Below, piece after piece: positions 9,643 through 43,138 of a DNA stretch of 64,000 nucleotides; within the stretch, counting starts at the first letter, position 1; each line of letters opens with the position of its first letter. Under the pieces are notes generated by a model. That model worked only from the letters and a program-made list of their open reading frames with translations, did not search any database and was not told where the DNA came from. This DNA comes from Anthoceros angustus (Eukaryota > Plantae > Anthocerotophyta): positions 1 to 64,000 of the forward strand of contig VJWM01000223.1 in the NCBI GenBank assembly GCA_010909165.1, in the 5' to 3' direction. Made by a program: the position numbers and the translations under genes.

Positions 9643-10123
9643 GGGTGTGGATTCGTGTCCGAGGGGACAAGTGAGGTCCACATTCACCCCTCAATGTCGT
9701 TGTAGGCTTAGGATTCGCTCCCAAGGGAATGGTTTGTGCCAAGAGGCGCTAACTTCTATCATGACCTTCACCTAAGTCAAGACTTGCACTGTACTCCTCT
9801 TACCTATCTACTCAACCACTACTACCCCCTTGTCTAGCCACCACGGCTCTTATTCCACGACCGCCCTCTCATTCCACGACCCGGTGCTCTCACCGGTAGT
9901 TGCTACCACCGGTGGGTCCACACCCAAACCCTAGCGACTTATTTCCGGCCGCGCGCGGATCTGCCAGGCGTCCAGCGCGGATCCGGCTTTATTCGCACTC
10001 CACACACACACACCGATTCCTAGGGACCTAAATTCCACAAATCCCTCACGCTCCACACACACACAAAGGCGCCACACTCACACAACTTTACAAGGGCAGC
10101 TGTTCCCCTTGCGCCTTCCACCA
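9643..10123 (-). mobile_element. Truncated second copy of the Athila-like element (PBS, leader, start of gag)
   Basis: Near-identical to 19546-20019, including the PBS-like minus-strand TGGTGGAAGGCGCAAGGG (~10104-10123). Confidence 0.85.
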
Positions 10124-13100: not shown

Positions 13101-13526
13101 TCGCTCCGCCCGCTCGCTCCGTCCGGCCGCCGTTGCGCTCCGTTGTTTGAGCAGGATTACATCATTCCTAGGGTTAAGTTTCCCGGTTCCCCTACTCTGT
13201 TAGACCTCTGCTTCCACATCCCAATCCACAACCCACACTCATTCGGCTACCAGCGTGGTCGACCCCAACTTATAGACTCTAATTATTCCAAACCCCCTAT
13301 CTCACATATATAGACTTTTTAGGGAACATTAGTCCATGGGCCAAGGAACACCAAATTCCGGACCATTTATTTTCTAACCTAGGCAATAAAACAAAAAGAA
13401 CTCCATAGGCCAAGGACATTTTACTATGAATATCCCCAACTACCAATCGACTTATTTTCACACCACTCAAAAAAAACAAAAAATTCACTTGGGCACATTT
13501 TGAGTTTCGAGACTAGATCGTTTACA
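10124..13526 (-). repeat. Long LTR (~3.4 kb) of Athila-like Gypsy, left copy
   Basis: Direct repeat of 20020-24286. Minus strand begins TGTAAAC at 13526, preceded by a PPT. TATA-like TGTATAAG near 10645-10652. Confidence 0.85.
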
Positions 13527-13540
13527 TACTCCCTTCTCAT
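13527..13540 (-). other. Polypurine tract
   Basis: Minus strand ATGAGAAGGGAGTA directly abuts the LTR start TG. Confidence 0.7.
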
Positions 13541-13559
13541 TTGTTGGCGTCCCGCCAAC

Positions 13560-16500
13560 TTATATAATACTTCTTGACCCTCCACCCATTGACTCGGGTG
13601 GTAGTGGAGGTCCGCTAACTCTTGCGGTTGTCTTGAGCCATTCTTGAAGACTTGAGAACCCTATGGCCCCATCCATCGAAGGTGGAGCTTGCGGAAAGTG
13701 CATGTACCTATTGTCGTGCAATGAGGCCAAGTCAAGAATCACCCACTCTTGCTTCCATAGATTGTCATGCCATATTTTCCTTTTACTTTGAATATATCAT
13801 GACGCTCACTGTTCCCCTATCCTCTGTATGTTTAGAAGCGACCAGGCGTTCGGTGACTTTCCTCTCGCCATGCGGTTAGTTTCACAGATCGCGGTGGGAA
13901 TTTCAAACTCAATAGGCATTAGGAGAATGGCGTAGGTGAGGTAATACGGTGTTTGTTGCGTTGTTATTTTCTCTGCGATCCTGTATGCCGGGCGCGGGAA
14001 GCTTAAGATCCCGATCGTCGCGTATTCCACCGTTAGCTTGTTGAGGATCACCACAAGAGCCATTCGCCTTTTCCGTTAAGCCATTTGCCTTGGGATTATA
14101 AGGAGTCGTTTTCTGTGGCGACGTTGAAGTAGATCGTCATATGAGATATAACCGTTGTGAAATGTGACCCTCATCGTGACAAGCTCAAGGGACAGCCATA
14201 TCGGTGATAATCATTCATAGAGGAACTGGCCACTACATGGTTTTGTACTGCGTGCTTGGGCTTCCACCATACGCGTGCAATGATAGTGGCCACGAGGATG
14301 TATTGGTTTTGTCGCGTCCTCGTTTTGGTGTATGGGACCAACAAAGTCTATTCCCCATTTCTCGAATGGCGCGGGCCAATATTGGAACCATTGGCCATTG
14401 AGTGGTTGCGGACGGTTTCCCAACCCTCTGACAGGCATCGCAGCGTTTAACAAACTCCCTAGCATCCTGATGCATGGTTTGCCACCAGTACCCCGTTTCA
14501 AGCACCTTCTTGCACGTGATATGTGCAGCAAAATGTCCTCCGCTTCCCCTCGTGCATCTCGTATTTTCGGATAACGCTCCTTGTTACCCATAACTGTCCG
14601 CCCATCCGGTCCCGATCATGATTGTCTTTGCGTCGTACAAGCGGGCGAATAGTGCCTAAACGCTTTGCGGGGGTTTGAAAGATCCGATGGTATTTTCCCC
14701 GTTTCCAAGAATTCCATCATCTCCTCGTGAGTGGGCCTTGTGTATCCCGTTCTCCCCTTCTCATTTCCTGCCGAGCCACCATTTACCCTCGCCTTATGGT
14801 TGGTGCGCTTCCCCTCTAACTTTCATGTGACAGGCTTCATCGGGAAAATCGTCGTTTTGGTCCTGTGTAACCTCCTCTGTTTTCAGCCTCGAAATGTAAT
14901 CTGCATTCACATGTTTACTCCCTCCTCTGGTCTCCACCGTGAACGTGAATTCTTGCAGGAGTAGGATCCATCTTGCTATGCGTCCAGACAAGTCAGTTTT
15001 GTTTACCAGGTGTTTGAGGGCGAAGTGGTCCACATGGAAGACGAACTCGTAGGATAGCAAATAGTGACGAAACTTGCGAACCGAGTACACCATCCTAGCG
15101 CCTCCTCTCGGTGGTGGTATACTTCTTCTGCGTCGGTGCTGCCTCCTGCATAATAGATTGGATAATCGTGCTTCTTGTCATCCCTTTGGCTTAGAATGGT
15201 ACCGATTGCATAGGCGAAGCGTCTACAAACACGTGGAACTTCTTGTTCGATCGGCCCCGCGTGGGTCTTGTGATCGGTGGTGCGAAGATCATTGAAGGCC
15301 TCCTCTCGTTTTGCGTCCATTCCACTCCGGTCCTTGCGAAGCAATTACATGGCGGGTGCCCTTACGGAGAAATTCTTCACAAACCTTGATAATAGCCTAC
15401 CATTCGAGGAATCCCTAAGCTCCTTGATTGTGGTAGGTGGCTTGAGGTAATGATTTTGACCTTATCCGGGTCGACCTCTATCCCATGGCAATCGGTGCCC
15501 CAACAAAATACCCTCGGCATGCCGAAATAACACTTCTCGGGATGTAGACACAATTGTCTGCATTGACCGTTCGGACATTTGCGAAGGTGGTTGAGGTGAT
15601 CTTTTGCTGCTCCAAACACGCGAAGTCATCCGGAAGACCTCCATGAAGTCCCTAAGGTATTCCTTGAAAATCTTGACAATCGCATGAAGGATCACGGTGC
15701 CCTGTTAATCCGAGCGCTCCGTTTGTAGGCATAGGTTCCCGATCATAGTGAAGGTGGGGCCAATCACTCTCACGAGATGTGATTATACCCGAATACCCAT
15801 CCGAGCAGGTAGACCATTCTCCCGCTAAGTCCGATTATGTTGTCTATGAATGGAAGCGGGTAATGGTCTTTTTGGTCACCTTGTTTAACTTCCTCCAATC
15901 TGGGACCGTATCTTCCCTTACGCTTTTTGGGAACCACCACAATTGGGGCTACCCACTCCGATGTCACAATAGGATATATGGCGTGCAAGTAGAGCTCAAT
16001 TGTTCCTTTACCTTGAATACTTTGGATTTAGCTTGTATTGCGGTATCCGGGGCACGGCTCGAGATCAATCTTGTGCTCCCCACTCCCTCGGTATACCCTT
16101 CATATACGTAACGTCAAAAGCAAAACGTGGATAAATTCCATGCAATTTGTTTCATACCCCTTTCCAAGTCTGCATTCATCCTTCGAAAACTTAAGGACCT
16201 TGCCGGGCAACACTTCCACATCCTTGACCTCATCCGTGCATGCCTCTCTCTCCACCGGCGGATGTGATGCGAACCCTTCCTCCTGTCTTGGTTCTCCTTG
16301 GCGCATTCCCCATTCCGGAATAGGTCGTCGAGGTAAAGCGTGAGACACCCTCCTCGCACCCTCGAAGTTTGTCCGGATCGCTCGGCTCACCTCTACTTCT
16401 TGTTCCTCGACCTCTCCGGTCTCCTCTCCGACCACGGGTTGTCAATTGTGACTCCATAGCACCCTAATAGGTTGATGGAATGGGAATATCTCTCCGTGTA

Positions 16501-19500
16501 TCGTCCTCTTCATCGACCACGAAATATGCGAATGGGAATTTCTCCTTCTCATCCTCTCCCAGGTATCTTGAGGTGTATCCCTCCGTTTCGTGGGTGTCTC
16601 CCTGCGTCGTATCTGCTCCAAGTCAAACATATCCTTCCTCCTTAATTTTGGGGTCCCGTCCAGGTTTGAATCCACTTCCTTTCTCGCCCATTTGAAGGTG
16701 CAACGTGCCCCATACATCCATGTTCGTCAATGAGAACCTCATACCACAGCGCTTTTTGTTTAATGACCACGTAGTCCATGAGGTGCGGAATGGTACCAAT
16801 ATGGGTTAGGACTCCGTCGGCTCCCCTACCGGCGCCATTTTGGACATGTCCGCAACACCTTTGATGTATGTTCTCTGCAACCCAAGCTTAGGCGGTCTCC
16901 TCTGTCATGATGTTGACTCGACCCGGAATCTAGCGGCACCTTCTTGATTACACATCCATAATTTCTATCTAGCTCCAGGTCACAGTCCATCATGGCCACC
17001 ATATTCACAGCAAGGGATTTCGGCCTTGGGGTGGAAAGGTTCCGTCTCTTCTTGGGTTGTGCCGCCTTCAATGCCCCAGTTCTTTGGCGGTCTGCGGATT
17101 CCACGAGGCATGAGCGTTATCATGAACTTTTGGTCCATGATAGCGTCATAAATTGAAAGGAACACTGTGCTTTGTTTCTCCTTGCCAACCCCACCGTCAT
17201 TTCATCCATGATGGTATTTGAGATGTTGCGGTCGTTGAAGCAGGCGTGGGTGGGTCGGTGGGTCGATGGCCAAAATACGGCCGAGTCTGTTCGATTCTTG
17301 TCGGATCATATCCATAACCTTCCACGACATCGGTGAGCGCCGACTCATCCTTTTTTCCTCTTGCGGGTTTTCGCCCCATGTGTCGACTCGAGTCCACTTC
17401 GTCCGTCCTTGTTTTACCCCTCGAATCCAGCGGTCTCTGCTAAGGAGTTACACTGTGATGCCATCCGAAATCGCAACCCTCGCGTTAAGTGTGGCGTTAG
17501 TGCCTTGCTCCCGTCCATTTTGGATTCGCATGCCCTTTTCTTTTTCGGCTCCCATCGAGTCCCTCGTCGATTTTGTGGTTGGACTTCTCTTCCTTCCCGC
17601 TTTGATGAAGCGCCTCTTCCTCCTCACTTGCGGACGTTATGCTCCCACTCCGTTCTTCTTCCTTTTTCCTCGCTCCCCTTCTTAGGGTGTCGCCTTCCTC
17701 TCGCCGCTCCGTGTCCGAGACCATCGCGGGGTTCCGTAATACCCACTATCCACATCCCCAACCCTTCCGGGCTCCTCGTGCAGCCTCGGAATCCTCCATC
17801 TGACCATGGCGCATCTTGACTTGCATTGCGGCAGCGGGCTTTCTTGTCGGGGGTGGGTCGCCGGAGGTTGAGCGATCCTCACTGTTTTTTCGGTGTCTGG
17901 CGGAGGCCACGTGACTGATTGCTTGCGGTCCACACGTCTTTCAAAATCACCATTCCCTGGCGAGATGCGGAGGGGCATCCAGCAAGATGCGAACCCTCGG
18001 CAATTGTAACCTTGGGCGGCACTCATTTGCGGGGTTCCTTGCCATCGATTGCGAATGCCCATGCACGTGGGGTTTCGCAAACTCGAGTACAAAGTTTTGG
18101 TACCAGATCGGTGTTGCCTCTTGAATTTGGTATGTATCTTCCAAGCACATCTCCTCATCCTCTTCCTCGTAGCCCAGTGGTTGCACTTTTGTTTGTGGAT
18201 TCGACCTCGAGTGCCCTCATCCACAAGTTGAGCGAAGAGATTCGCCCGCGCTCCGGTAGCAACCCTTCTTCTATCATGGTCCTTGATGGCATTAAGATGG
18301 AGTTTCTCGGTTTGACCATCATTTCCTCCATCTTGTTCCCTTGTTGCTCCACTTTTTTTGGCTGTTTCCACCTCTCTTCTCACACTCCGCGTCCTTTCGT
18401 GCATATAGCGGCTCCTTCCCTTTTGCACGTCGTCTTGTTTCCAGTCATTTTTCCCTTCTTCCTTCTATCCCTTGATTTCGCTCATCGTGAATTCTCCTCC
18501 GAATCCTCATGGTCTCCTCTTGGTGGAGCTACCGGGAGTCGGTTGAAAACTATCCTCCTCCATGAGCTGTCATCGGAGGCGAATAGTACTTCTTCTTCTT
18601 TTGTATTTCTTTTGTATTTCTTTTTGTCCTTAGTGCGCCCTTGTTGAGTTCTTCTTCTCTTCCGCGTTGGACTCCTCATAGTTCGAGCGGCTTTAATCGC
18701 CCGATCCAAATCTTTCGGCACATACGTGCCTTCCCATCTCCAATCCTCTTGCAAACCGGTGAATGGCCATTAGCTCAGTGCGGACCGGCCCGATCCGTGG
18801 GGCTGGAACCTTTCCACATAAGCTGCGGTCTCCTTCTTCCCTCTCAATCCCTCCAGTTTGGACAAGACATATCCTTCCACATCGACCCCTCTGATCTTTC
18901 ACAAAAGCTCTCTTCAAGGCCCCAAAGTAGGCGGGGTGTGGAAGCTATGTACTCCGCTTGTACCACTTGGCGCCGCTCGCGTAAGACTCCATAAAGCAGT
19001 GGGCACGATCGCATCCTCACGGTTGTGGCGTCAGCTCAAAGCAGCTCGACAAACTCGTCGGGATCCTCATGGCCCTTCTTTTCTCCATACGGGTAAGATT
19101 GCTTGTAGTAACAAAGATCGGCCATAAGGTAGTACTTTCAGCGATTGGTAGTTGGCGCCACTACGTGCGGGTGACCTCTACATTCACAGTTATTTGGTGC
19201 GGTGGTCTAGGCAATTTGGGCGAGATCAAAAGACAAGGTGGAATCGGGTACACGGCCCCTTATGCTCGTAGTCGAGGTTGGGAATCGAATCCGTTAAGAT
19301 CGATCCCTAGTTAGAGTTGACTCCTGCCCCTTCCTCGTCCGGCAAGTGTGATCTCCGCCCGTGCTCTCCTCGTAACTCTGCAATCTTTCCGCTTGGCGTT
19401 GCCGTCTTGCGAGCGTTTCCCCAGTCGGATCGAATCGCTTGTCTCCACCGAGGCATCCATCAATCTAGTAATGCTAGACTCTCGTAAGCTAGGGTTAGTC

Positions 19501-19740
19501 CTTCCTCGTCCTTGGCGATTCCATTCCCCAGCGGCGCCAAAATGTGGAGTGTGGATTGTGTCCGGGGACACCGTGAGGTCCACATTCACCCTCAATGTCG
19601 TTGTAGGCTTAGGATTCGCTCCCAAGGGAATGGTTTGTGCCGAGGCGCTAACTTCTATCATCGACCTTCACCTAAGTCAAGACTTACTTGCTATTACTCC
19701 TCTTACCTATCTACTCAACCACTACTACCCCCTTGTCTAG
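13560..19740 (-). mobile_element. Athila-like (non-chromovirus) Ty3/Gypsy gag-pol, frameshifted
   Basis: Protease VPLDSGSS (~16915-16940); RT IYPIVTSEWVAPIVVVPKK and KDHYPLPFID (ORF 15770..15988); RNase H VRKFRHYLL...DHFALKHL...GRIARWILLLQEF (14794..15093); integrase GYWWQTMHQDAREFVKRCDACQR and PFEKWGIDFVGPI (~14330-14505). Gag start approximate. Confidence 0.9.
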
Positions 19741-20000
19741 CCACCACTCTTATTCCACGGCAAATCTCATTCCACGTCTGTCACACCGGTGCTCTCACGG
19801 TAGTTGCCACCGGTGGGTCCCACCCAAACCCTAGCGACTTATTTCCGGCCGCGCGCGGATCCCGCAGGCGTCACCATGCGGATCGGCTTTGTGCACTCCA
19901 CACACACACACACCGATTCCTAGGGACCTAAATTCCACAAATCCTCACGCTCCACACACACACAAAGGCGCCACACTCACACAACTTTACAAGGGGCTGT

Positions 20001-20019
20001 TCCCCTTGCACTTCCACCA
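20001..20019 (-). other. Primer-binding site
   Basis: Minus strand TGGTGGAAGTGCAAGGGGA immediately inside the 5' LTR, complementary to a tRNA 3' ...ACCA end. The tRNA was not identified. Confidence 0.6.
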
Positions 20020-23000
20020 GACGGTTTGGTTTCTTTTGGATTCACACAATCTCCTTTGCTAGCCTCTCAATTAGTTCCCTTCTCAACCCTCTCACACCTC
20101 GCGCCAGCGTCTGATTGTTTAGTCACTCCTTCACCCAATCTTCTCCCTCTCTCTCTCTCTCCCTCAACTCGCCCGAGCTTCCAACCATCCACTCAACACT
20201 CTCAATTGAACACAACTAGCGAGGACAAGTGTGAAGGAAAAAGAACCCCAGGCGTCCACGGCGGGCGTTGAGCAAGCTCCGGACCGCCCGCGCCAATCCC
20301 TTGGTTTCCTTCCTCCTTTGTGCCAAGATTGCTTTCACCCCTCCTCCCAGTGCGGAGCAAGCTCTCGACCACCCCTAGGGCGTCTCGCGCCTCACCTGTC
20401 AATCGGACGTCTCCAACCAGCCACAGGCGTGGGGATCTCAACCAGGAATTGCTCGGCGTGAGGGACCTAATTGCCCCTCTTATACATCGGTGGGGCACCA
20501 TGCCCGGATTTTAGGTCCTAAGATGGCTATCGCGAAGGCGCCCACAATTCGGGCGATCCTAGGTCGATCGGCATCCTAACCAAATTATCTTTAGGTTGCT
20601 ACCTCACCTCGCTCTGCGCGCCCTACCTCGACTTGGCCGTCGGCCCCTCGTCCTCCATTGCTGCCGCCACGAGCTCTCGCCGCCTGGTCGGACGGGTTCT
20701 CCACACTACTTCCACCTCACATCGCTGGGCGTCCGAATTTGAGGTGTACCACCCTGGGGCTTCGCATCTTCGGCCGCCTATTCGAGGATTATTCGGCTCC
20801 TCGTCCACCCAAGCTGGACCTCCTCCTCGCTCAACTCCTCCAAAGTCGCCTCCGCGCATAATAGGAGCCAACCCCACACGGGCGCGGTGGTAGAAGTATG
20901 CGCCGGGTCCTCACTTGCGATGGTAGGCCACAGATCCCTCCTATTTCCACACGCACATGGGCGGTGAGGTTAAGCACGCGTTCTCCATTCACATATAGAC
21001 CGACATAAGTTTCCTCATCCATGTGCCGTAATATAATAGGACCCTGCTGCGGTGAGGTGCTTACCCCTCCTCCGTAGGCTACACACAGTTGCAGCCTATG
21101 TCCTCGCGGGCGCCACGTCGCATCCCGCCCGCCTGCACTGCCCGGGTTGGTTGCGCCAATGTCGGTGGCGGTTTCGACTACGTAGTGGACTCCACGGCGT
21201 CGTTCGTTCGACAACCGCGGTAGGTGAGGTTTCGGCTACCTCGGTTCTTTGCTTCCTTCCTCGGTAGGCCCTTCCGCTACTCGATCGTGGTCCTGCTACC
21301 CGCTTCCTTCCCTTTGTCTTTTACGGCGCCACGTGCCTCATCCGCTCCGCTTATATCGCTCGCTAGCTTATGGGCCTTTTCCGAGGCCGCTTCACGCTCT
21401 GGGCTGCAACAACTCCCCGCATCTCTGGTTCGCCTCGTGGGCATCCTTAATTTGAGCCATGAGTGCTTCCTGCTGGCTCGTCATGGCTTGCAACTTCTCA
21501 CAGGCCTGCACAAATCTTCTTGAATCTTGGCCCTTATTTCCTCTAGGTTCCGCTTGTCTTCCTCCATTGCTTGCGCTTGGCCTCCTCTTCGTCAAACTGG
21601 CCTTCACCACTTCCTCCGTCGCGCACCGAGCGGTGAGAGCTAAAGCCGCTTGATCCAACAAATGCTTGGGCCCGGATCATCGGCGTGGTCGGCTCCTCGT
21701 CCACCCAAGCTGGACCTCCTCCTCGCTCAACTCCTCCAAAGTCGCCTCCGCGCATAATAGGAGCCAACCCCACACCGGCGCGATGGTAGAAGTATGCGCC
21801 GGGTCCTCACTTGCGATGGTAGGCCCCATCCCTCCTATTTCCACACGCACATGGGCGGTGAGGTTAAGCCGCGTTCTCCATTCACATATAGACCGGCACA
21901 TAAGTTTCCTCATCCATGTGCCGTAATATAATAGGACCCTCTGCGGTGAGGTGCTTACCCCTCCTCCGTAGGCTACACAGTTGCAGCCTATGTCCTCGCG
22001 CCACGTCGCCCCGCCCGCCCCACCGGGTTGGTTGCGCCAATGTCGGTGGCGGTTTCGACTATGATGTGGACTCCACGGCCGTCGTTCGTTCGACAACCGC
22101 GGTAGGTGAGGTTTCGGCTACCTCGGTTCTTTGCTTCCTTCCGCTCGGTAGGCCCGCTACTCGATCGTGGTCCTGCTACCCGCTTCCTTCCCTTTGTCTT
22201 TTACGGCCCGCGTGCCTCATCCGCTCCCCTCGCTAGCTTATGGGCCTTTTCCGAGGCCGCTTCACGCTCTGGGCAACAACTCCCCATCTCTGGTTCGTCT
22301 CGTGGGCATCCTTAATTTGAGCCATGAGTGCTTCCTGGCTCGTCATGGCTTGCTTCTCACAGGCCTGCACAAATCTTCTTGAATCTTGGCCCTTATTTCC
22401 TCTAGGTTCCGCTTGTCTTCCTCCGGTTGCTTGCTTGGCCTCCTCTTCGTCAAACTGGCCTTCACCACTTCCTCCGTCGCCCTGCGAGCCGGTGAGAGCT
22501 AAAGCCGCTTGATCCAACAAATCTTGGGCGGATCATCGGCGTGGTCACTCCTGCAAGTCCACTTGTTGTGGCGGCCCCGCCCCATCCCTCTCGAGAACTT
22601 TCCTCCCAGTGCGCACCCTCACCAATTCGGTTGCATCCACCTCTGTTGCGGTGGAGTCCCTTGAAAATCTCTTCCCATCTTTGAGGAGGGTCCGCCTCGA
22701 GGTCGACCTAAACCCTCGGAGTTGATTCATCATCGCATCCAGTCGGCAAAATTGTCCTCGGATCGCGCCTCCTCTTCGCCACCTCCAAGCCCGTTTGGCT
22801 TTCATTTTCAGTGGCGCGCTTTTCGACACAGTGGCCAGCGCGCATCCTTCACCTTTTTCGTGATGCCCTTTCACCCCGGTCTTCCTCCTTTTCTTTGGTG
22901 GGAATTTCCTTCTCCTCCTCCAGGCGCACTGTCGCCACCGACTCCCGGCTATCCGATTTTTCCTCCTTGGGCTCCTCCGCCTTCCATTTCACCTCCCTAA

Positions 23001-24286
23001 GCTTCCACATGTGGAGGAGGCTACAATCTCCACCTCGGCGTTAGCGTAAACATAAAGATGGACCGAAATGGTGAGATTAGAGAGGCGAGGCGGAGGAAAT
23101 CAAGTTCAACCTCTCTTCACACAACTTGTCGAGAATTACTTAATCGATCTTCGCCCCTTGACCACTTCATGAAGGAGCGGCAAGTGGTCGACAAATAATC
23201 AGCTTCTTGTCTGCGAAACATAGGAGCCATGGCGGACCCATCAAGCTGCATTGCCAAATCCCTCGTCAACCGGCCGTTGGGTTCGCGTCGCCCGCTTTAA
23301 CGGGCGGCTGCTGCTCTTGCCGTGCTTCTTTTCTGGGCGGCTCCATCACCAACCGCCCGCCTCCTCCTTGCCCGCCCATACACCCTTCTAACTCCGGTCC
23401 CAATCCTGCGGCTTTCTAAATCCCCGCTTTGGTATGTCCTTGGTGTGGCGCACTCTGCACGGTCCAGTTCATGTAATTCCACCGCTCTTCCATGAAACCC
23501 GGCTTGACTCCTTCACGCTCCCAGCTCGAACTTTCCAATGATCCATGTTCGGCCATTGGGCAAGCACAATTTCGGTGGTGACCTTGGGCGCCATCCCTCT
23601 CACGGTCTTCTGGTCTCGCGCCACAACCGCGCCACCTCTGCGAATTTCACGGAGGTCGGTCTCGGGTTCCTACCTCCTCGGCAAGGGCGCCCGGCGTCGC
23701 GCCTTCCTCCTCTGCGTCGCGCCTCGCGATGTCGGCGGGGTTGAGCTCCTTCCCGTCGTTGCGCCTCGCGCCCTCCTGCGATCACGGTGCCCCGGACCAC
23801 GGCTCCTCGACTTCGCGCTTGACCGTCGTCGCGCTCCGCTCGCTCCGTCCGGCCGCCGTTGCGCTCCGTTGTTTGAGCAGGATTACATCATTTCCTAGGG
23901 TTAAGTTTCCCAGGTTCCCCTACTCCTGTTCGACCTCCACGACCGCTTCCCCACATCCCGATCCACAACCTCACACTCATTCGGCTACCGCCGCGTCGGT
24001 CGACCCCAACTTATAGACTCTAATTATTCCAAAACCCCCCCCCTATCTCACATATATAGACTCTTTTTTAGGGAACATTCCGAGTCCATGGGCCAAGGAA
24101 CACCAAATTCCCGGACCATTTATTTTCTAACCTAGGCAATAAAACAAAAAGAACTCCATAGGCCAAGGACATTTTACTATGAATATCCCCAACTACCGTC
24201 AATCGACTTATTTTCACACCACTCTCGGCCAAAAAACAAAAATTCACTTGAGGCACATTTTGAGGTTTCGAGACTAGATCGTTACA
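20020..24286 (-). repeat. Long 5' LTR (~4.3 kb) of Athila-like Gypsy with ~0.9 kb internal tandem duplication
   Basis: Matches 10124-13526. Minus strand starts TGTAACGATC at 24286. Segment ~20794-21690 is repeated at ~21690-22545. Confidence 0.85.
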
Positions 24287-26222
24287 AATGCCGGCGGTGA
24301 TGGTCACCAACATGGCCGTGGCGCAAAACGGCCAGTGGTGCATCTGGCGTCGTGAGGTTGATCCTGGCCAGGCGTCCGTGCATCGGTGATTGGTTGTTTG
24401 CAATCCATGGATTAAAATCGCCTTCTTTGGTTTGACGAGTCTTGACCGTGAAGGGCTGAAGTCGCCATCACACGCTCCGCCGCCTCGCGTCTTGTAAGGG
24501 CGGCATCACGGTGGGCGATTGGAGGCGAGTGGTGTCGTGAAGGACCAATTGATTGATCGGTGCATCGCTTGGCGGTAGTGGGCCGCCGTGACACCGGGAT
24601 TCGCGGTAAAGTACGTGGTGTGGTGCTAAGGTGGTCCTATAATGGATTTGGAAGCGGATCATACACCGCAAAACACCTTGCGCATGTGGCGTGCCCCAAT
24701 TCCAGGCGTGGGAAGATAAGTGGCGCACTCCTTTGAGTGCGCAAGTACCCGGCTGGGAAGCGAGCGGCCCGAAGCGTTCACGGAATTACAGGCGTTCTTG
24801 TTATCGTGGAGTCTCATCATGAGACATGCAATGTTGAGAATTTTCCATATGACCCGCGAGGACTTGTTCGAACTTGCGGAAGGGGATGAGCAGGCAATCG
24901 TTTGTGTGGACTAGCTTGTGAAGGGCGTTTACGTAGTTGGAACATCACCTCTTTATGCATCAAGTTTTTGATCATTGGCCTAAGGAGGTTTCGATGTATA
25001 GGCGGCGGGGAGAAACACAGAGACTTGCGTGGTCGAAGGTGTGGCTTAGCCATTTGCATCAGCGGAGACGATCGCCGCCGGCTATCCAAAACTTTTATCG
25101 CCTATTTGCTTGTCTGCGGACGAGAATTTTGGAGTGGGATGAGCCCTGAGTGCTGGTACTTGCTGAACAACAACGTGGGTGGATATTTGCGCACACAATG
25201 CATCGACAAAGCGATTACTACGTGAATGGGTTGAATGGACCACGGATGGCGGTCAAGGCGAGCTTGGCGGTGATGAGGAAGAGGAGCTAATGGCTCGACA
25301 TCGAGCAGAAGCAGCGATTGGGAAAGCGCAAGTAGATGAGTACTTTGATCACGAAGAGCGGTGGCGGCTCTCGGCAGCGGCCCGACTGGCGACCCTCCGA
25401 ACCCGGCGGTATGTTTGACGGTTCTCTGAGAAGATTTTATAGGATATGAAAATGCCCAAAGTGCTGCTTTGACGTGTGTGCCGCTACTTTGGCGGGGGCC
25501 ATTGGCGATTCGAGTTTTGTGGATTTGATCAATCACGTCTTTGTGCAAACACTTAGCAAAGTGCGGTTTATGGTTATTACCCTCCGCACTAGTTACAGTC
25601 ATCACGTGTCACAGCGGCTATGCGGCCCGTAAGCGCGGCGGTATCATGACATCTGATGTGATAACTTGTGAGTGGATATGTTGATTAGATAGGATGTGAA
25701 TGAGCATGGTATGCATGCCCACATAAGCATGCACACATAAGCATCTTTGATAACCATGTGTGTGACCTGCGGAGGCCGTGAACGCCGCGTAACAGCGGGT
25801 AGCGGACCGTCTTTGGGCGGCGTCACGGCGGAATTATGGCGCGCCATGGGCGGCGATCCTCTTGGGCGTCAAGGCGCGCAGCGGGTGCATGATCGGCGGG
25901 AAGGCGCGCCAAGCATTTAAGCGATATAAAGTAGGCTCCAATCCGCGGTGGCAAGCGGATTGCGATGTTGTTCTTACAGGCGACCATACAGTCCCAATGA
26001 AGAAGGGTGCGGAGTTCCTTTGACAATCACGGCTCAGGAGGTGCGGGTGGATGGGCTTAGACCCGATTGAAGGGCGAATTTTGCCATTGGCGATTCGAGT
26101 TTTGTGGCTTTGATCAATCGTCTTGTGCAAACACTTAACTTAAGTGCGGTTTATGGTTATTACCCTCCGCACTAGTTACAGTCATCACGTGTCACAGCGG
26201 CTATGCGGCCCGTGGCGCGACA
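24287..26222 (+). mobile_element. Probable remainder of the DNMT-Gypsy 3' LTR
   Basis: Ends GCGCGACA (inverted match to TGTCGCGC at 9422). TATA-like GATATAAAG ~25923. ~135 bp direct repeat 25500-25635 / 26085-26220. Directly abuts the middle of an array unit. Confidence 0.5.
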
Positions 26223-26748
26223 AGCTCTTCTTATCTACTTTGTTGTCCCACCACATCGTAGGGTCGGAAAAATTGTTGCCACAAGAGCTCCCGCCCGGCC
26301 ACGACCATCGTGGAAAATCCTTCCCCACCCACACACTTTCGAAGGTGGAAGTCTTTGGGTTGCTCATCTTCTTTGCACAGGTTTGGCTGGTTACGATGCT
26401 TGACCCTTGAGGTGGCGTGCGTGGGAGCTCCTTGTAGAATCCACCTCGCTCGCCACTTTGTTGGGTCCACAAGGGATCCGGTTTCCATATTGTAGCCACG
26501 TTACGGGCACCGCCCTCGAAAGATGGAGTGAGGCGGACACAAACTACCTATGAGCGTGATAGATCGGCCGGAGGACACATGCCCTTCATGCACACCTCCC
26601 TTCCGGATCTGAGGCTAGTTTGCAACGGCCATCTGCAACTTTGCTCATCCTGGGCGAAAACTCCAACTTGGGCAGCAAGCTTGCGAGGCCTTGGTGGAAA
26701 GCTAGTTTGTGTGTGTGGCCTTGACCGCCTCACATTGCACTGCAATCA
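26223..26748 (-). pseudogene. OSB-PPR gene fragment, partial first copy cut by LTR end at 26222
   Basis: Contains LLWQQFF and DPTMWWDNKVDKKS, then the sequence switches to LTR. Confidence 0.6.
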
Positions 26749-27084
26749 AGGCCAAGGAACTTGGGCCTATGTACATAGGTATATCTTGATGTACCTATAT
26801 TATTGTCGAAGACCAAGGAACGTGGGGCTATATATGTATATGTTATATAAGTTACTTATATTATTGATAATCTTTGAGAAAAAATTTCATCCTAAGATTA
26901 TATAATAATTTTCATGATATAAATTACCGAGAACCAAGGAACATTAGGCTATCTATATATGCAAGTATATAGGTTGTTTTATTATTGCACAATCGCTGAT
27001 AGTTTTACAAAAGCTTGGTGGAAAGCTAGTTTCGCGAGTATTAAAAACCAAGCTAGCTAGTTTGTGTGAGAGTACCGAAAAACA

Positions 27085-28062
27085 ATGGACATGAATAATA
27101 CTGCCTATGCTCTCAATTCACGACATTTGCCCCAGTTGCGAAGATAGATGAAGGCGTCTGCGGAAATATTCAGGTTTAATCATGATATAATTAAAATTAT
27201 ACCTCTTGACAACGAGGGTGAGGAGCAACATCTTGAAGCGATAAACAATGAATTCGATCGCAGAGACTTTGGCCACCTTACAAGATCAGAGGCTCCTTTT
27301 GCTGCACTAATTCTTATGCAACAAATCCCATGCAATATGGGAAGGACCACTCTTTTCGAGTTTATTATTGCTAAGGCGCCGGTCGTGTCCTATGCAACAA
27401 GGTTTCCTCTAGAGTATCCACCTTGTCAAAGGTTCGGGATGATTGTACAAGAGGAGGCTGGGATTCCTTTGTCAAAATTCCAATTTTCACACAATGCGAA
27501 ATCAAAAGCATGTTATTGCAAGTAACTCTTGCTTTACACGTAGCACAAAAGCTTATGGATTCGAGCATCGTGACCTCCATACAAAAATATTCTTTTGACT
27601 TATCGAGATCAACAAAGTGTTGAATTCTATACCGTATGCAATAGAAAGAAAAAATCAAAACATACGGAATAAGGGTATCTATAATAGATTTCGGATTATC
27701 ACGTATGCAACGTGATACACAAGTCCTATTTAGCAAAGTGGCAAAATTTGAGCCGAGGATATCATTTCTGCACTTGGAATCGTGTGCACGAAATTGTGGG
27801 CTCAAATTGGGACCATAGTTTCCCTAAGATCAATGCGATATGGATCAATTATCTAACTCAAGTCGTTGCTGCAAAGCAGTTGAAAACCAAGAATTGCCCC
27901 TAAATTGCCTTCAACAATTATTTGCTTTTCTTTTGACGAGTAACATTGTGTAACAATGAGAGATTGGAAGAGACCGGTTTTCAAGACATGTGGCTAAAAG
28001 AAATGTCGAGTGAAGTCAAACTACATTCTAATTCTTATTCAAAAGTTAAGATGACATTGTAA
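27085..28062 (+). CDS. Haspin-like protein kinase, copy 1 (frameshifted in assembly)
   Basis: Consensus over copies: KIDEGASAEIFRFNHDIIKIIPLD ... INNEFLIA ... IKSMLLQVTLALHVAQKAYGFEHRDLHTK(N)ILL ... VSIIDFGLSRM ... WDHSFPKINAIWINYL ... DRFFEDMWL...MTL*. Matches Haspin hallmarks (FEHRDLHWGN, IIDF/YTLSR, W..SF..N.LWL.YL, DPFF.DM). Confidence 0.8.
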
Positions 28063-28437
28063 CCCAACGGTGAATTAGACGTACACTAAAGGTCGAGTGC
28101 ATAATTCCTTGCATTTTCTCTCAAAAGAATCCCTTGTATTCTCATTTTCACAAGGATAAGGTAAGAGGGCAGCTAGATGCAATAATTCCTTTTTCGATTC
28201 CTTGATAAAAAGAAAGTTGGGCGAGAGACTTTCTTCACTATAGCCATTAATTTTTATAAGTGTAAATAATTTTACAATTTTCAAACACGTGAATTTTTAT
28301 CTTCAAAGATCTAGTAATGTCATCGAGTTCTCTAGTTTGGTATGGTGGTTAGATCTCGTTCCCGCCCTGTGTCTGAATGATCGCACTATCCAAATACTCT
28401 AACCTGCACTTCCTTTGAGGAGTGACACGTTTCTCGC

Positions 28438-28669
28438 CATGAATTCATTGGATGGAACTCTGTGGTTAAGCAACCCTTCGGCTAGAACGCTACTGAGATG
28501 GGGTACCACTCACCTACCCAATTGCTCCGGGCCCTTGAAGTGACACAGAAGCCATGAGTTCATTGGCACTCCGTGGTTAAGCAACCCTCCGGTGCCCAAT
28601 TGCTCCTAGCCATGGCCCTTGGTGGCTCTGTTGATACCGTGAGCGTTCATTGGCACTCGTGGTCAAGTG
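28438..28669. repeat. Three imperfect ~90-115 bp repeats (ttcattgg...cgtggttaagcaaccc...cccaattgctcc), present in every full unit
   Basis: Motif starts at ~28444, ~28559, ~28646. The third copy is cut at the array junction but continues in the last unit (59848-59930). Confidence 0.8.
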
Positions 28670-30085
28670 GCGCAAAAGTCACATGCACTTCTGCCGGATT
28701 CCAAGTCGAGGCAAATGCACAAGCTTGAAAGACAGCCACAAAGCCGTGAGCATCCGCCTTCACACGATCTCGCATGTCATGATGCAGTGTATGGCCTCTT
28801 CAGTTTCCCATGTTCGAGTAAGCGGTGATGATGGAAAACCACATGAAGGCATATGGTTTCCCTACGTGAACACATCCATGGCCTCCTGACCTACCTCCAC
28901 TTGCATACATGCGCAACAAATGGTTCGCCAAGTATGCATGCGACTCTCCAAGTTTGTGATGATCATGAACTCGTCGCCCCACAAACAAATCCTTCACGGC
29001 TGCACATAGTTTTAACACATATACGAGACGGGAAATAGGACAATTTGCCAAGCCCGGAGATTCCGAGGCTGCGGCCTCGATAAGCTTCCCTGGCGGCGTA
29101 ACGTGATCACGGCGGTATTCTGCCATTTCCGATCTCACCGCGCTGCCGACCTCACGATTATCCGGAGCTCGGTGCAAGGAGACTCGAAGGATCGTGGGCG
29201 ACCCTGGAAAGAGGAGAGGAGAGGAGAGGAGGAGGCAAGGTAGCTCTCTCACATTGAGATGAGGCTTGGAGGTATTTATACCCTCCAGGCTCCTAGGAAG
29301 CTCCACAAGAAGCTCCTAGGAAGGAGCACAAGAAGCTTCCTAGTGATTAGCTTAAGCTAAACTAATGATACTTAACGACACCTAACTTAGACTAAGTGTA
29401 TTGGTCTAAGTACATTGCTTTAATACCCTTACGGACTCGCCATGAGCCATGTGCATATCCAAAGCAGCTGCTCGTCCACCCAAGTTGGCTTGAACATCTT
29501 TGTTTAACGAGGACCTCGCTCGCCACTTTGTTGTCCCACCACATCGTAGGGTCGGAAAAATTGTTGCCACAAGAGCTCTTCTTATCTACTTTGTTGTCCC
29601 ACCACATCGTAGGGTCGGAAAAATTGTTGCCACAAGAGCTCCCTCCCGCCACGACCATCGTGGAAAATCCTTCCCCACCCACACACTTTCGAAGGTGGAA
29701 GTCTGGGTTGCTCATCTTCTGGAGGTTTGGCTGGTTACCGGTGCTTGACCCGAGGTGGCGTGCGTGGGAGCTCCTTGTAGAATCCACCTCGCTCGCCACT
29801 TTGTTGGGTCCACAAGGGATCCGGTTTCCATATTGTAGCCACGTTACGGGCACCGCCCTCGAAGATGGAGCCGAGGCGGACACAAACTACCTATGGTGAT
29901 AGATCGGCGGAGGACACATGCCCTTCATGCACACCTCCCTTCCGGATCTGACTAGTTTGCAACCGCCATCTTGCAACTGCTCATCCTGGGCGAAACTCCA
30001 ACTTGGGCAGCAAGCTTGCGAGGCTCCTTTTGCTGCACTTGGAATCGTGTGCGAAATTGACCGCCTCACATTGCACCACCTGGAA
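28670..30085 (-). pseudogene. OSB (PDF-motif)-PLS PPR fusion fragment, copy A, solo-LTR interrupted and 3'-truncated
   Basis: PDF motif consensus WQQFF.DPTMWWDNKVDKKSS.PDF.K.S.E.L...PTWVDEQL, upstream of PPR motifs VY.VLKLCAAVKDLFVGRRVH / LANHLLRMYASGGRLQEAMDVF / WFSIITAYSKHGKPEEAIHLYHDMRRSGVKAD / FVAVFQACA..DLESGREVH. Confidence 0.75.
29186..29433 (-). mobile_element. ~250 bp solo LTR with 5 bp TSD GACTC (representative; present in 8 units)
   Basis: GACTC at 29181-29185 and 29434-29438. Ends resemble TG(T)AAGG...CCTTAC(A), garbled at CWG. Internal minus-strand TATAAATA (29273-29280) followed by a CT-rich tract. Absent, with a single GACTC, at 42463 and 57340. Confidence 0.65.
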
Positions 30086-30422: not shown

Positions 30423-31405
30423 ATGGACATGAATAATACTGCCTATGCTCTCAATTCACGACATTTGCCCCAGATTGCGAAGATAGATGAAGGCGTCTGC
30501 GGAAATATTCAGTTTAATCATGATATAATTAAAATTATACCTCTTGACAACGAGCGTGAGGAGCAACATCTTGAAGCGATAAACAATGAATTACGATCGC
30601 GAGACTTTGGCCACCTTACAAGATCAGAGGCTCCTTTTGCTGCACTAATTCTTATGCAACAAATCCCATGCAATATGGGAAGGACCACTCTTTTCCGAGT
30701 TTATTATTGCTAAGGCGCCAGTGTCCTATGCAACAAGGTTTCCTCTAGAGTATCCACCTTGTCAAAGGTTCGGGATGATTGTACAAGAGGAGGCTGGGAT
30801 TCCTTTGTCAAAATTCCAATTTCACACAATGCGGAAATCAAAAGCATGTTATTGCAAGTAACTCTTGCTTTACACGTAGCACAAAAGCTTATGGATTCGA
30901 GCATCGTGACCTCCATACAAAAATATTCTTTTGACTTATCGAGATCAACAAAGTGTTGAATTCTATACCGTATGCAATAGAAAGAAAAAATCAAAACATA
31001 CTAATAAGGGTATCTATAATAGATTTCGGATTATCACGTATGCAACGTGATACACAAGTCCTATTTAGCAAAGTGGCAAAATTTGAGCCGAGGGATATCA
31101 TTTGCTGCACTTGGAATCGTGTGCACGAAATTGTGGGCTCAAATTGGGACCATAGTTTCCCTAAGATCAATGCGATATGGATCAATTATCTAACTCAAGT
31201 CGTTGCTGCAAAGCAGTTGAAAACCAAGAATTGCCCCTAAATTGCCTTCAACAATTATTTGCTTTTCTTTTGAATGAGTAACATTGTGTAACACAACAGC
31301 AGAGATTGGAAGAGACCGGTTTTCGAAGACATGTGGCTAAAAGAAATGTCGAGTGAAGTCAAACTACATTCTAATTCTTATTCAAAAGTTAAGATGACAT
31401 TGTAA
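30423..31405 (+). CDS. Haspin-like protein kinase, copy 2
   Basis: Same motifs as copy 1; ORFs 30423..30713, 30759..30959, 30953..31240. Confidence 0.8.
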
Positions 31406-33703: not shown

Positions 33704-34691
33704 ATGGACATGAATAATACTGCCTATGCTCTCAATTCACGACATTTGCCCCAGTTGCGAAGATAGATGAAGGCGCGTCTGCGGAAATATTCAGGTTTAA
33801 TCATGATATAATTAAAATTATACCTCTTGACAACGAGCGTGAGGAGCAACATCTTGAAGCGATAAACAATGAATTCGATCGCGAGACTTTGGCCACCTTA
33901 CAAGATGCAGAGGCTCCTTTTGCTGCACTAATTTCTTATGCAACAAATCCCATGCAATATGGGAAGGACCACTCTTTTCCGAGTTTATTATTGCTAAGGC
34001 GCCAGTGGGTGTCCTATGCAACAAGGTTTCCTCTAGAGTATCCACCTTGTCAAAGGTTCGGGATGATTGTACAAGAGGAGGTGGGATTCCTTTGTCAAAA
34101 TTCCAATTTCACACAATGCGGAAATCAAAAGCATGTTATTGCAAGTAACTCTTGCTTTACGTAGCACAAAAGCTTATGGATTCGAGCATCGTGACCTCCA
34201 TACAAAAATATTCTTTTGACTTATCGAGATCAACAAAGTGTTGAATTCTATACCGTATGCAATAGAAAGAAAAAATCAAAACATACGGAATAAGGATATC
34301 TATAATAGATTTGGATTATCACGTATGCAACGTGATACACAAGTCCTATTTAGCAAAGTGGCAAAATTTGAGCCGAGGGATATCATTTGCGCTGCACTTG
34401 GAATCGTGTGCACGAAATTGTGGGCTCAAATTGGGACCATAGTTTCCCTAAGATCAATGCGATATGGATCAATTATCTAACTCAAGTCGTTGCTGCAAAG
34501 CAGTTGAAAACCAAGAATTGCCCCTAAATTGCCTTCAACAATTATTTGCTTTTCTTTGGACGAGTAACATTGTGTAACACAACAGCGAGATTGGAAGAGA
34601 CCAGTTTTTCGAAGACATGTGGCTAAAAGAAATGTCGAGTGAAGTCAAACTACATTCTAATTCTTATTCAAAAGTTAAGATGACATTGTAA
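33704..34691 (+). CDS. Haspin-like protein kinase, copy 3
   Basis: Same motifs; shows GAAGGCGCGTCTGCGGAA (EGASAE) in frame. Confidence 0.8.
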
Positions 34692-35299: not shown

Positions 35300-36705
35300 G
35301 CGCAAAAGTCACGATGCACTTCTCTGCGGATTCAAGTCGAGGCAAATGCACAAGCTTGAAAGACAGCCACAAAGCCGTGAGCATCCGCCTTCACACACGA
35401 TCTCGCATGTCATGGTGCAGTGTATGGCCTCTTCGGGTTTCCCATGTTCGAGTAAGCGGTGATGATGGAAAACCACATGAAGGCATATGGTTTCCCTACG
35501 GTGAACACATCCATGGCCTCCTGCACCTACCTCCACTTGCATACATGCGCAACAAATGGTTCGCCAAGTATGCATGCGACTCGTACCAAGTTTGTGATAA
35601 GATCATGAACTCGTCGCCCCACAAACAAATCCTTCACAGGCTGCACATAGTTTTAACACAACATATACGAGGCGGAAATAGGACAATTTTCCAAGCCCGG
35701 AGATTCGAGCTGCGGCCTCGATAAGCTTCCCTGGCGTAGCGTGATCACGGCGGTATTCGACACCCATTTCCGATCCTGCGCTGCCGACCTCACGATTAGC
35801 GGAGAGCTCGGTGCAAGGAGACTCGAAGGATCGTGGGCGCCATCGTGGAAAGAGGAGAGGAGAGGAGAGGAGAGGAGGCAAGAGTAGCTCTCACATTGAG
35901 ATGAGGCTTGGAGGTATTTATACCCTCAGAGTCCAGGCTCACAAGAAGCTCCTAGGAAGGAGCACAAGAAGCTTCCTAGTGATTAGCTTAAGCTAAACTA
36001 ATGATACTTAAGACACCTAACTTAGACTAAGTGTATTAGTCTAAGTACATTGAGCTTTAATACCCTTACGGACTCGCCATGAGCCATGTGCATATCCAAA
36101 GCAGCTCGTCCACCCAAGTTGGCTTGAACATCTTTGTTTAACCAGAGGACACATGCCCTTCATGCACACCTCCCTTCCGGAAATCGTGAGGAGCTCTTCT
36201 TATCTCGTTGTCCCACCACATCGTAGGGTCGGAAAAATTGTTGCCACAAGAGCTCCTGCTCGCCACGACCATCATTGGAAAATCCTTCCCCACCCACACA
36301 CTTTCGAAGGTGGAAGTCTTTGGGTTGCTCATCTTCTGGAGGTTTGGCTGGTTACGTGCTTGACCCAGCGAGGTGACGTGCGTGGGAGCTCCTTGTAGAA
36401 TCCACCTCGCTCGCCACTTTGTTGGGTCCACAAGGGATCCGGTTTCCATATTGTAGCCACGTTACAGGCACCGCCCTCGAAGATGGAGCCGAGGCGGACA
36501 CAAACTACCTATGAGCGTGATAGATCGGCCGGAGGACACATGCCCTTCATGCACACCTCCCTTCCGGATCTGACGCTAGTTTGCAACTTTGGCCATCGCA
36601 ACTGCTCATCCTGGGCGAAAACTCCAACTTGGGCAGCAAGCTTCTGAGGCCTTGGTGATCATGGGGCATTTGCGAAATTGACCGCCTCACATTGCACCAC
36701 TGCAA
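35300..36705 (-). pseudogene. OSB-PPR fragment, copy C (with solo LTR)
   Basis: Same motifs as copy A. Confidence 0.7.
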
Positions 36706-37041: not shown

Positions 37042-38031
37042 ATGGACATGAATAATACTGCCTATGCTCTCAATTCACGACATTTGCCCCAGTTGCGAAG
37101 ATAGATGAAGGCGCGTCTGCGGAAATATTCAGTTTAATCATGATATAATTAAAATTATACCTCTTGACAACGAGCGTGAGGAGCAACATCTTGAAGCGAT
37201 AAACAATGAATTCTTGATCGCATAGACTTTGGCCACCTTACAAGATGCAGAGGCTCCTTTTGCTGCACTAATTTCTTATGCAACAAATCCCATGCAATAT
37301 GGGAAGGACCACTCTTTTCCGAGTTTATTATTGCTAAGGCGCCGGTGGGTGTCCTATGCAACAAGGTTTCCTCTAGAGTATCCACCTTGTCAAAGGTTCG
37401 GGATGATTGTACAAGAGGAGGCTGGGATTCCTTTGTCAAAATTCCAATTTCACACAATGCGAAATCAAAAGCATGTTATTGCAAGTAACTCTTGCTTTAC
37501 ACGTAGCACAAAAGCTTATGGATTCGAGCATCGTGACCTCCATACAAAAATATTCTTTTGACTTATCGGAGATCAACAAAGTGTTGAATTCTATACCGTA
37601 TGCAATAGAAAGAAAAAATCAAAACATACGGAATAAGGGTATCTATAATAGATTTGGATTATCACGTATGCAACGTGATACACAAGTCCTATTTAGCAAA
37701 GTGGCAAAATTTGAGCCGAGGGATATCATTTGCGCTGCACTTGGAATCGTGTGCACGAAATTGTGGGCTCAAATTGGGACCATAGTTTCCCTAAGATCAA
37801 TGCGATATGGATCAATTATCTAACTCAAGTCGTTGCTGCAAAAGCAGTTGAAAACCAAGAATTGCCCCTAAATTGCCTTCAACAATTATTTGCTTTTCTT
37901 TGGACGAGTAACATTGTGTAACACAACAGAGATTGGAAGAGACCGGTTTTCAAGACATGTGGCTAAAAGAAATGTCGAGTGAAGTCAAACTACATTCTAA
38001 TTCTTATTCAAAAGTTAAGATGACATTGTAA
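37042..38031 (+). CDS. Haspin-like protein kinase, copy 4
   Basis: ORF 37229..37561 ends KAYGFEHRDLHTK. Confidence 0.8.
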
Positions 38032-40364: not shown

Positions 40365-41348
40365 ATGGACATGAATAATACTGCCTATGCTCTCAATTCA
40401 CGACATTTGCCCCAGTTGCGAAGATAGATGAAGGCGTCTGCGGAAATATTCAGGTTTAATCATGATATAATTAAAATTATACCTCTTGACAACGAGCGTG
40501 AGGAGCAACATCTTGAAGCGATAAACAATGAATTCTTGATCGCAGACTTTGGCCACCTTACAAGATGCAGAGGCTCCTTTTGCTGCACTAATTCTTATGC
40601 AACAAATCCCATGCAATATGGGAAGGACCACTCTTTTCCGAGTTTATTATTGCTAAGGCGCAGTGGGTGTCCTATGCAACAAGGTTTCCTCTAGAGTATC
40701 CACCTTGTCAAAGGTTCGGGATGATTGTACAAGAGGAGGCTGGGATTCCTTTGTCAAAATTCCAATTTTCACACAATGCAGAAATCAAAAGCATGTTATT
40801 GCAAGTAACTCTTGCTTTACACGTAGCACAAAAGCTTATGGATTCGAGCATCGTGACCTCCATACAAAAATATTCTTTTGACTTATCGAGATCAACAAAG
40901 TGTTGAATTCTATACCGTATGCAATAGAAAGAAAAAATCAAAACATACGGAATAAGGGTATCTATAATAGATTTCGGATTATCACGTATGCAACGTGATA
41001 CACAAGTCCTATTTAGCAAAGTGGCAAAATTTGAGCCGAGGGATATCATTTGCGCTGCACTTGGAATCGTGTGCGAAATTGTGGGCTCAAATTGGGACCA
41101 TAGTTTCCCTAAGATCAATGCGATATGGATCAATTATCTAACTCAAGTCGTTGCTGCAAAGCAGTTGAAAACCAAGAATTGCCCCTAAATTGCCTTCAAC
41201 AATTATTTGCTTTTCTTTTGAATGAGTAACATTGTGTAACAGCAGAGATTGGAAGAGACCGGTTTTCGAAGACATGTGGCTAAAAGAAATGTCGAGTGAA
41301 GTCAAACTACATTCTAATTCTTATTCAAAAGTTAAGATGACATTGTAA
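40365..41348 (+). CDS. Haspin-like protein kinase, copy 5
   Basis: Same motifs as copy 1. Confidence 0.8.
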
Positions 41349-41944: not shown

Positions 41945-43138
41945 GCGCAAAAGTCACAGTGCACTTCTCTGCGGATTCAAGTCCGAGGCAAATGCACAAG
42001 CTTGAAAGACAGCCACAAAGCCGTGAGCATCCGCCTTCACACGATCTCGCATGTCATGATGCAGTGTATGGCCTCTTCAGTTTCCATGTTCGAGTAAGCG
42101 GTGATGATGGAAAACCACATGAAGGCATATGGTTTCCCTACAGTGAACACATCCATGGCCTCCTGCAGCCTACCTCCACTTGCATACATGCGCAACAAAT
42201 GGTTCGCCAAGTATGCATGCGACTCGTACCAAGTTTGTGATAAGATCATGAACTCGTCGCCCCACAAACAAATCCTTCACGGCTGCACATAGTTTTAACA
42301 CGGCATATACGAGGCGGAAATAGGACAATTTTCCAAGCCCGGAGATTCCAGTACACCTCGATAAGCTTCCCTGGCGGCGTAACGTGATCACGGCGGTATT
42401 CTGACACCCATTTCCGATCTGCCGCTGCCGGCCTCACGATTAGCGGAGGCTCGGTGCAAGGAGACTCGCCATGAGCCATGCATATCCAAAAGCGTGCTCG
42501 TCCACCCAAGTTGGCTTGAACATCTTTGTTTAACGAGGACCTCGCTGGACCCCTTCCATGGGAATCGGGCGGCGGGGCTCTTCTTATCTACTTTGTTGTC
42601 CCACCACATCGTAGGGTCGGAAAAATTGTTGCCACAAGAGCTCCTTGTAGAATCCACCTCGCTCGCCACGACCATCATTGGAAAATCCTTCCCCACCACA
42701 CACTTTCGAAGGTGGAAGTCTTTGGGTTGCTCATCTTCTTTGGAGGTTTGGCTGGTTACCGATGCTTGACCCGAGGTGGCGTGCGTGGGAGCTCCTTGTA
42801 GAATCCACCTCGCTCGCCACTTTGTTGGGTCCACAAGGGATCCGGTTTCCATATTGTAGCCACGTTACAGGCACCGCCCTCGAAAGATGGAGCCGAGGCG
42901 GACACAAACTACCTATGAGCGTGATAGATCGGCCGGAGGACACATGCCCTTCATGCACACCTCCCTTCCGGATCTGACGCTAGTTTGCAACAGCCATCTT
43001 GCAACTGTTCATCCTGGGCGAAAACTCCAACTTGGGCAGCAAGCTTGAAAGACAGCCACAAAGCCGTGAGCATCCGCCTTCACACGATCTCGCATGTCAT
43101 GAATTCATTGGATGGAACCCTCACATTGCACCTGGCCA
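41945..43138 (-). pseudogene. OSB-PPR fragment, copy E (no solo LTR)
   Basis: Empty site gcaaggaGACTCgccatgag at 42463-42467. Confidence 0.7.

Follow-up and report, generated by a model that had tools for sequence, protein, structure and literature searches.

The window, i.e. the whole stretch of 64,000 nucleotides analysed here, carries ten full copies and one partial copy of a kinase gene, arranged in tandem between 27085 and 59272 in units of ~3.3 kb; the flanks of this array are retrotransposons. The features referred to below are:

1660-2180, minus strand: copia-like pol fragment (PF22936)
6900-7240, plus strand: second reverse transcriptase fragment (PF00078, weak)
9640-24283, minus strand: LTR retrotransposon of Gypsy type, its LTR-like repeats (~4 kb) at 9640-13522 and 19543-24283
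26223-59873, no strand assigned: whole array, 11 units
26223-29573, no strand assigned: tandem unit 1, 3351 bases, comprising a GC-rich leader, the kinase gene, a ~94-base minisatellite, a PPR fragment and an LTR-like piece
27039-27047, plus strand: putative TATA-like element TATTAAAAA, 46 bases 5' of the ATG, identical in 11 of 11 copies
27085-28062, plus strand: kinase-domain-only haspin-derived gene, copy 1, broken by indels in the assembly
27147-27166, plus strand: Gly-rich loop of copy 1, first Gly replaced by Asp, the rest blurred by noisy CG sites
27193-27195, plus strand: beta3 Lys (IIKII), kept
27250-27252, plus strand: alphaC Glu (NNEF), kept
27566-27590, plus strand: catalytic loop HRDLHT(K)N, with HRDLHT at 27566-27583 and an A5 run at 27583-27587 that lacks one base in 10 of 10 copies
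27687-27695, plus strand: DFG (IIDFGLSR) replacing DFT/DYT
27901-27903, plus strand: in-frame TAA, in 10 of 10 copies, ~53 codons before the stop at 28060-28062
28670-29000, minus strand: PPR gene fragment carried in the unit, with 8 exact anchor matches within the array
~28990-29420, minus strand: LTR- or promoter-like piece with a CT-rich leader and TATAAATA, of which units 5 and 10 have lost part
30423-31405, plus strand: kinase copy 2
33704-34691, plus strand: kinase copy 3
37042-38031, plus strand: kinase copy 4
40365-41348, plus strand: kinase copy 5
43469-44444, plus strand: kinase copy 6
46791-47772, plus strand: kinase copy 7
50136-51115, plus strand: kinase copy 8
53423-53744, plus strand: partial kinase copy, 5' third only
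55228-56209, plus strand: kinase copy 9
58301-59272, plus strand: kinase copy 10

An initial annotation of copy 1 had described an intronless gene, reduced to the kinase domain and running from an ATG to a TAA. When the gene is aligned to a profile built from 23 homologues, with frameshifts allowed, all kinase subdomains are collinear with those of plant haspins and no insert exceeds three codons, which leaves no room for introns; the gene is thus intronless and, as described, kinase-domain only. Both its ends (ATG at 27085 and TAA at 28060-28062) were confirmed, but no copy forms a single open reading frame, and the in-frame TAA at 27901 had gone unnoticed. The ATG lies ~20 codons upstream of the Gly loop, in a context (AAAAACAATGG) that is identical in 11 of 11 copies and resembles what I take to be the plant start consensus. 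In the homologues the N-terminal region spans 220-590 residues; a tblastn search of the window with 11 haspin N-termini returned no match at E 0.05, a weak test since these termini diverge fast. The parent haspin gene of plants has introns, and a retrocopy origin is the simplest inference. The gene is AT-rich relative to its neighbours, as had been noted (GC 38.5%, compared with 52% in the left flank and 51-54% where the unit is GC-rich), yet GC drops further, to 32-34%, in the promoter and 3' parts.

The proposed haspin ancestry is borne out by database comparisons, for which an 83-residue unbroken stretch of copy 6 served as the PDB, Pfam, Atlas and phmmer query. Eight of the nine matched PDB sequences are haspins, the best with an E of 2e-5, and kinases of other kinds are not among them. 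The best Pfam match of this 83-residue fragment is PF12330, whose 22.1 bits lie below the threshold of 25, and Pkinase was not matched; in Atlas, the highest clusters (0.91-0.95) are haspins of eukaryotes. Phmmer gave 24 matches, the top one being a repeat artefact; PF12330 was present in 9 of the 10 that were scanned, and the named ones among the 20 looked up are green-plant proteins. N-lobe fragments alone had no Pfam or PDB match, and word-index searches with two fragments produced six candidates each and no match. Scored with an HMM built on 22 haspins, the X-read reconstruction reaches 199 bits, whereas 200 shuffles do not exceed 1.2, a partly circular comparison. The closest sequence is a Selaginella haspin (35-38% identity), followed by Diphasiastrum and then liverworts, the best three scores being 174, 164 and 158 bits. 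The host is probably a land plant without seeds. Judged from its sequence, the gene is real and haspin-derived; it is not a canonical haspin, because it has neither DYT/DFT nor the long N-terminal region.

The gene has travelled far from these relatives. Among the haspin columns that are at least 90% conserved, 50 of 91 are kept and 41 lost, whereas the 21 plant-type homologues keep 86-100% and the remotest homologue keeps 60 of 90. Its branch in the tree measures 3.58, within no supported clade. Of the checks that had been suggested, the Pfam comparison gave PF12330 as the best match, and the tree left the gene unplaced on its long branch. The fast evolution that had been suspected is supported, and a fast-evolving haspin offshoot is the reading that these comparisons support.

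As regards predicted activity, the beta3 Lys, alphaC Glu, HRD, the His that follows, Asn, the Mg-binding Asp and LSR are kept, with IIKII, NNEF, HRDLHT and IIDFGLSR located where they had been annotated, and so are the plant-type motifs CTNF, GP, W..SFPK.N and FF.DMW. At the DFG site, 21 of 22 homologues have DFT and one has DYT; none of the substitutions listed for a paralogue contig (see below) falls there. The Gly loop had been called eroded and read as DEGASA: the change of the first Gly to Asp holds under either reading, but DEGASA is in register only with an allele of 2 of the 10 copies, the majority giving DEGVCG and then a shift. The APE motif is absent, and the segment, which aligns to the haspin activation segment, is about 5-6 residues shorter, in agreement with the shortening reported earlier. 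The beta4-beta5 helix-insert region is present but shortened, with several conserved residues lost and noisy sites within it; where haspins lack alphaG and carry an additional two-strand sheet in the C-lobe, the predicted protein is collinear with them but for a one-residue insert. DYT and the lack of APE are hallmarks of haspins (PMC2845818, available text), and the haspin domain is described as constitutively active, with DYT, no APE and a contact of Tyr722 to the catalytic Asp (PMC3513839, in the sections accessible).

The best solved-structure match is human haspin (GSG2; PDB 2VUW, 3DLZ). The equivalents of its Lys511, Glu535, Asp649, His651, Asp687 and Arg692 are kept in the offshoot, whereas DYT has become DFG, the two invariant hinge acids Asp611 and Glu613 have become Pro and Ser, Gln718 and Tyr722 of the activation segment have become Ile and Trp (PDB alignment, numbered from DYT 687-689), and the regulatory N-terminus is missing; in the Tyr722 column, 21 of 22 homologues have Tyr. 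Haspin Glu613 and Gln718 have a role in H3 tail binding. The loss of the hinge Asp and Glu argues against H3 Thr3 phosphorylation, and the offshoot likely no longer acts on this usual histone target of haspin. What may be expected is thus a kinase core that is still competent but whose substrate site has changed, in line with the new substrate suggested at the outset, for the hinge acids, Gln718 and Tyr722 make an altered substrate site likely; nothing points to the dominant negative that had also been suggested, since the catalytic residues are retained. Deregulation, a further suggestion, would follow from the N-terminal loss if the gene is expressed. The invariant residues lost in the Gly loop, the hinge and the activation segment could equally mark a weak or dead kinase. 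Lys511, Asp611, Asp649, His651 and Asp687 are given as key residues for ATP binding in the part of PMC11320660 at hand, and the mammalian haspin gene, like the offshoot, is intronless (PMC8254168, partial text).

All copies need frameshifts to be read through; in those aligned singly they number 10 (copy 1), 8 (copy 3) and 9 (copy 8) per ~770 bases. One-base deficits at T4 27297-27300, A4 27547-27550, A5 27583-27587 and A6 27649-27654 recur in 10 of 10 copies, and one further shift is needed near 27100-27110 to pass from the ATG to the homologous frame. The annotation had flagged a single missing A as common to all copies; it is indeed A5 in all ten full copies, but it is one of four such deficits, and of the two explanations offered for it, homopolymer compression or a real shift, compression is favoured, though unproven. 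When alleles present in at least one copy are chosen, 5 shifts and no stop remain over ~300 codons (four one-base deficits in runs of 4-6 and one shift near the C-terminus), the choice being optimised against the same homologues later used for scoring. At other homopolymer sites the frame-keeping length occurs in 2, 3, 5, 6 or 9 of 10 copies, from which it follows that homopolymer undercalling is graded. An unrelated control in the window, the gypsy pol, shows 51 frameshifts over 2,509 bases (44 of them deletions) and 2 stops, and 5 of its 35 four-runs and 1 of its 3 five-runs adjoin a deletion; this control is supportive only, as the element could itself be decayed. Since the shifts in this retrotransposon are denser than those of the kinase and deletion-biased, the apparent kinase frameshifts are likely long-read sequencing errors. 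Homopolymer lengths outside the array show no clear depletion relative to an order-2 Markov model.

The gene has 32 variable sites: 27 involve a change of length, and 21 fall at CG/CHG, where a null of 6.6 +/- 2.2 is expected (0 of 5000 placements reach 21). A variable site lies near 17 of 33 CG and 7 of 11 CWG sites, versus 14 of 46 GC and 7 of 62 TA. Nanopore errors are linked to methylated CG and CWG, and the variation in the array is characteristic of methylated plant DNA assembled from long reads without polishing.

The TAA at 27901 is either a real nonsense codon or the product of two compensating indel errors. The commonest allele continues in the same frame beyond it into homologous sequence, while frames that bypass it score 10.5 and 11.8 against 6.2, no more than slightly better although their shifts went unpenalised. 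DNA run X1, the only one found, matches 27837-27929, TAA included, exactly; it was rejected as independent proof of this codon, for its contigs show the indel and CG variants of the window copies, and a run that shares the error pattern of the window provides no independent test. Run X1 is likely the same noisy data as the window, and its coverage excludes 27493-27614, which includes the flagged A-run. Run X2 gave no record, which has no bearing on expression. A genetic code reading TAA as Gln was likewise discarded (the gene uses ordinary Gln codons and its relatives are land plants).

The kinase copies are 96.8-97.8% alike and differ chiefly by indels. Across the 10 whole units (unit 9 excluded) there are 8 clean substitution columns, and a few transitions are common to several units; so few clean substitutions between units mark the amplification as very young. 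In unit 9 a deletion of ~1.5 kb runs through the kinase, whereby two thirds of the gene are gone, units 5 and 10 have a 267-column deletion in common, and the final unit is without its last ~0.9 kb. Run X1 contigs reach a depth of ~200-480 on the kinase gene and 4-6 on diverged paralogues, contig depth in this run being a mere hint of many copies and no copy number. Patches duplicated from other parts of the unit occur at 30030-30059 (identical to 27765-27796), 36142-36181, 43040-43115 and 49712-49773 (identical to 27440-27502), and are likely consensus artefacts of the assembler.

Low-depth run X1 contigs, on 27649-27879, 28006-28147 and 50457-50596, represent diverged paralogues, about 93% and about 80% alike. 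A small family elsewhere in the genome is likely. Of the 10 substitutions scored in the paralogue contig, 7 are synonymous, against an expected share of 0.22-0.28 (P 0.001-0.007, omega about 0.15); the test rests on 10 substitutions in one contig of depth 4.2 from noisy data, 11 of 15 substitutions being listed and one listed change left unscored. This hints at a family under purifying selection until recently, and the synonymous bias implies that any death of the gene was recent.

The explanation I favour, with about an even chance of being right, is that of a retro-derived haspin kinase that evolves fast, has a changed substrate site, was amplified very recently and is probably methylated, its frameshifts likely being errors. 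A spliced haspin mRNA would have been copied back into a 5'-truncated retrocopy that gained its own TATA box and start, and the offshoot would then have diverged into a small family under purifying selection. Devoid of the N-terminal autoinhibitory and targeting region, the kinase may be constitutively on and not steered to centromeres, and the changes in the hinge (Asp611, Glu613) and the activation segment may weaken H3-Thr3 recognition in favour of another substrate. The 3.3 kb piece would have multiplied very recently, through unequal exchange or rolling-circle copying, within a region rich in transposons; the clustering of errors at CG and CWG suggests an array that carries methylation and is for the most part silent in the sequenced tissue.

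A serious competitor, to which I give a somewhat better than one-in-three hearing, is that the array holds a recently dead member of a formerly functional family of haspin offshoots, a passenger in a methylated repeat, in which the TAA at 27901, perhaps joined by genuine slippage frameshifts, predates the amplification. The presence of the TAA in 10 of 10 copies, with the frame running on past it, fits such a death, the more so as all copies have a single ancestor and one lesion hence suffices; the company of broken PPR and LTR-like pieces amid retrotransposons, the unit short of two thirds of the gene and an error pattern suggestive of transposon-like methylation point the same way. On the other hand, the homologous frame is without any other stop, the alleles of copies 4 and 7 open a path round the TAA, a compensating error pair occurs elsewhere in the majority reading of the gene, and the paralogue comparison is biased towards synonymous changes. 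Were the TAA real, this would be an ordinary amplified pseudogene. That the gene is real but its array for the most part a product of the assembly, with fewer loci inflated or collapsed into it, is quite unlikely: units are nearly identical and the patches copied within them betray a faulty consensus, but the deletion and transitions common to some units and, as a hint only, the high run X1 depth on the gene relative to the paralogue contigs oppose it. Least probable of all is horizontal entry, e.g. from a giant virus with haspin-like kinases. The annotation had raised it, and it might account for an intronless, AT-rich gene on so long a branch; Nucleocytoviricota kinase clusters do appear in Atlas (0.88-0.89, at the level of a lead). 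Nevertheless, the best matches are lycophyte and then liverwort haspins, plant-type motifs are kept, the top Atlas clusters are eukaryotic haspins, and no relative was confirmed among 7 viral and 122 metagenome candidates in a search sensitive to close relatives only, so that this origin was not upheld.

A bolder form of the favoured reading, namely an intact, expressed and constitutively active offshoot with a new substrate, kept in tens of copies under selection, is improbable. One conceivable role is that of a driver or suppressor, germline or meiotic, which would act upon chromatin or centromere signalling in a plant that bears no seeds. In plants, haspin is a mitotic kinase kept at close to one copy. 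Independently of the bolder reading, a fast-evolving family that is kinase-only, bears DFG and was amplified in tandem so recently would offer a natural test of the parts played by DYT/DFT, the hinge acids and the N-terminal region in H3-Thr3 specificity, and a plant parallel to the unexplained haspin expansion of Caenorhabditis. There, hasp-2 and more than eight proteins resembling haspin are reported, their role being unknown; they are lineage-specific divergent paralogues beside one canonical gene (PMC9277076, in the portion available), whereas here the copies belong to a plant, stand in tandem, are near-identical and arose very recently.

With land-plant haspins such as Selaginella moellendorffii XP_024516473.1 and AtHaspin At1g09450 (PMC3113928), the offshoot shares a collinear kinase domain in which Lys, Glu, HRDLH, Asn, LSR and W..SFPK.N..W are kept and APE is lacking; it differs in having no N-terminal region, DFG for DFT, and a changed GxG loop, hinge and activation segment. 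It is also multi-copy, while most plants have one haspin gene according to the accessible text of the same paper. In the literature, as far as its available text goes, no kinase-only or amplified plant haspin family was found, though kinome supplements might contain counts. The haspin kinase itself is known; what is new here is an intronless, kinase-only offshoot of it in a very young tandem array.

As to the remaining elements, the PPR fragment of unit 4 matches PF01535 at 19.4 bits, below the cut-off of 25, and in my reading has a PLS-type look, which would presumably suit a lycophyte, hornwort or fern host. An Rfam search gave no match. Two local direct duplications flank the array (25498-25630 with 26083-26213, and 60265-60547 with 60989-61273). 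The LTR-like repeats of the Gypsy element are 89-91% alike, with gaps outnumbering mismatches; its pol lies at ~13650-16100, and its best named relatives are liverwort elements (65-69%).
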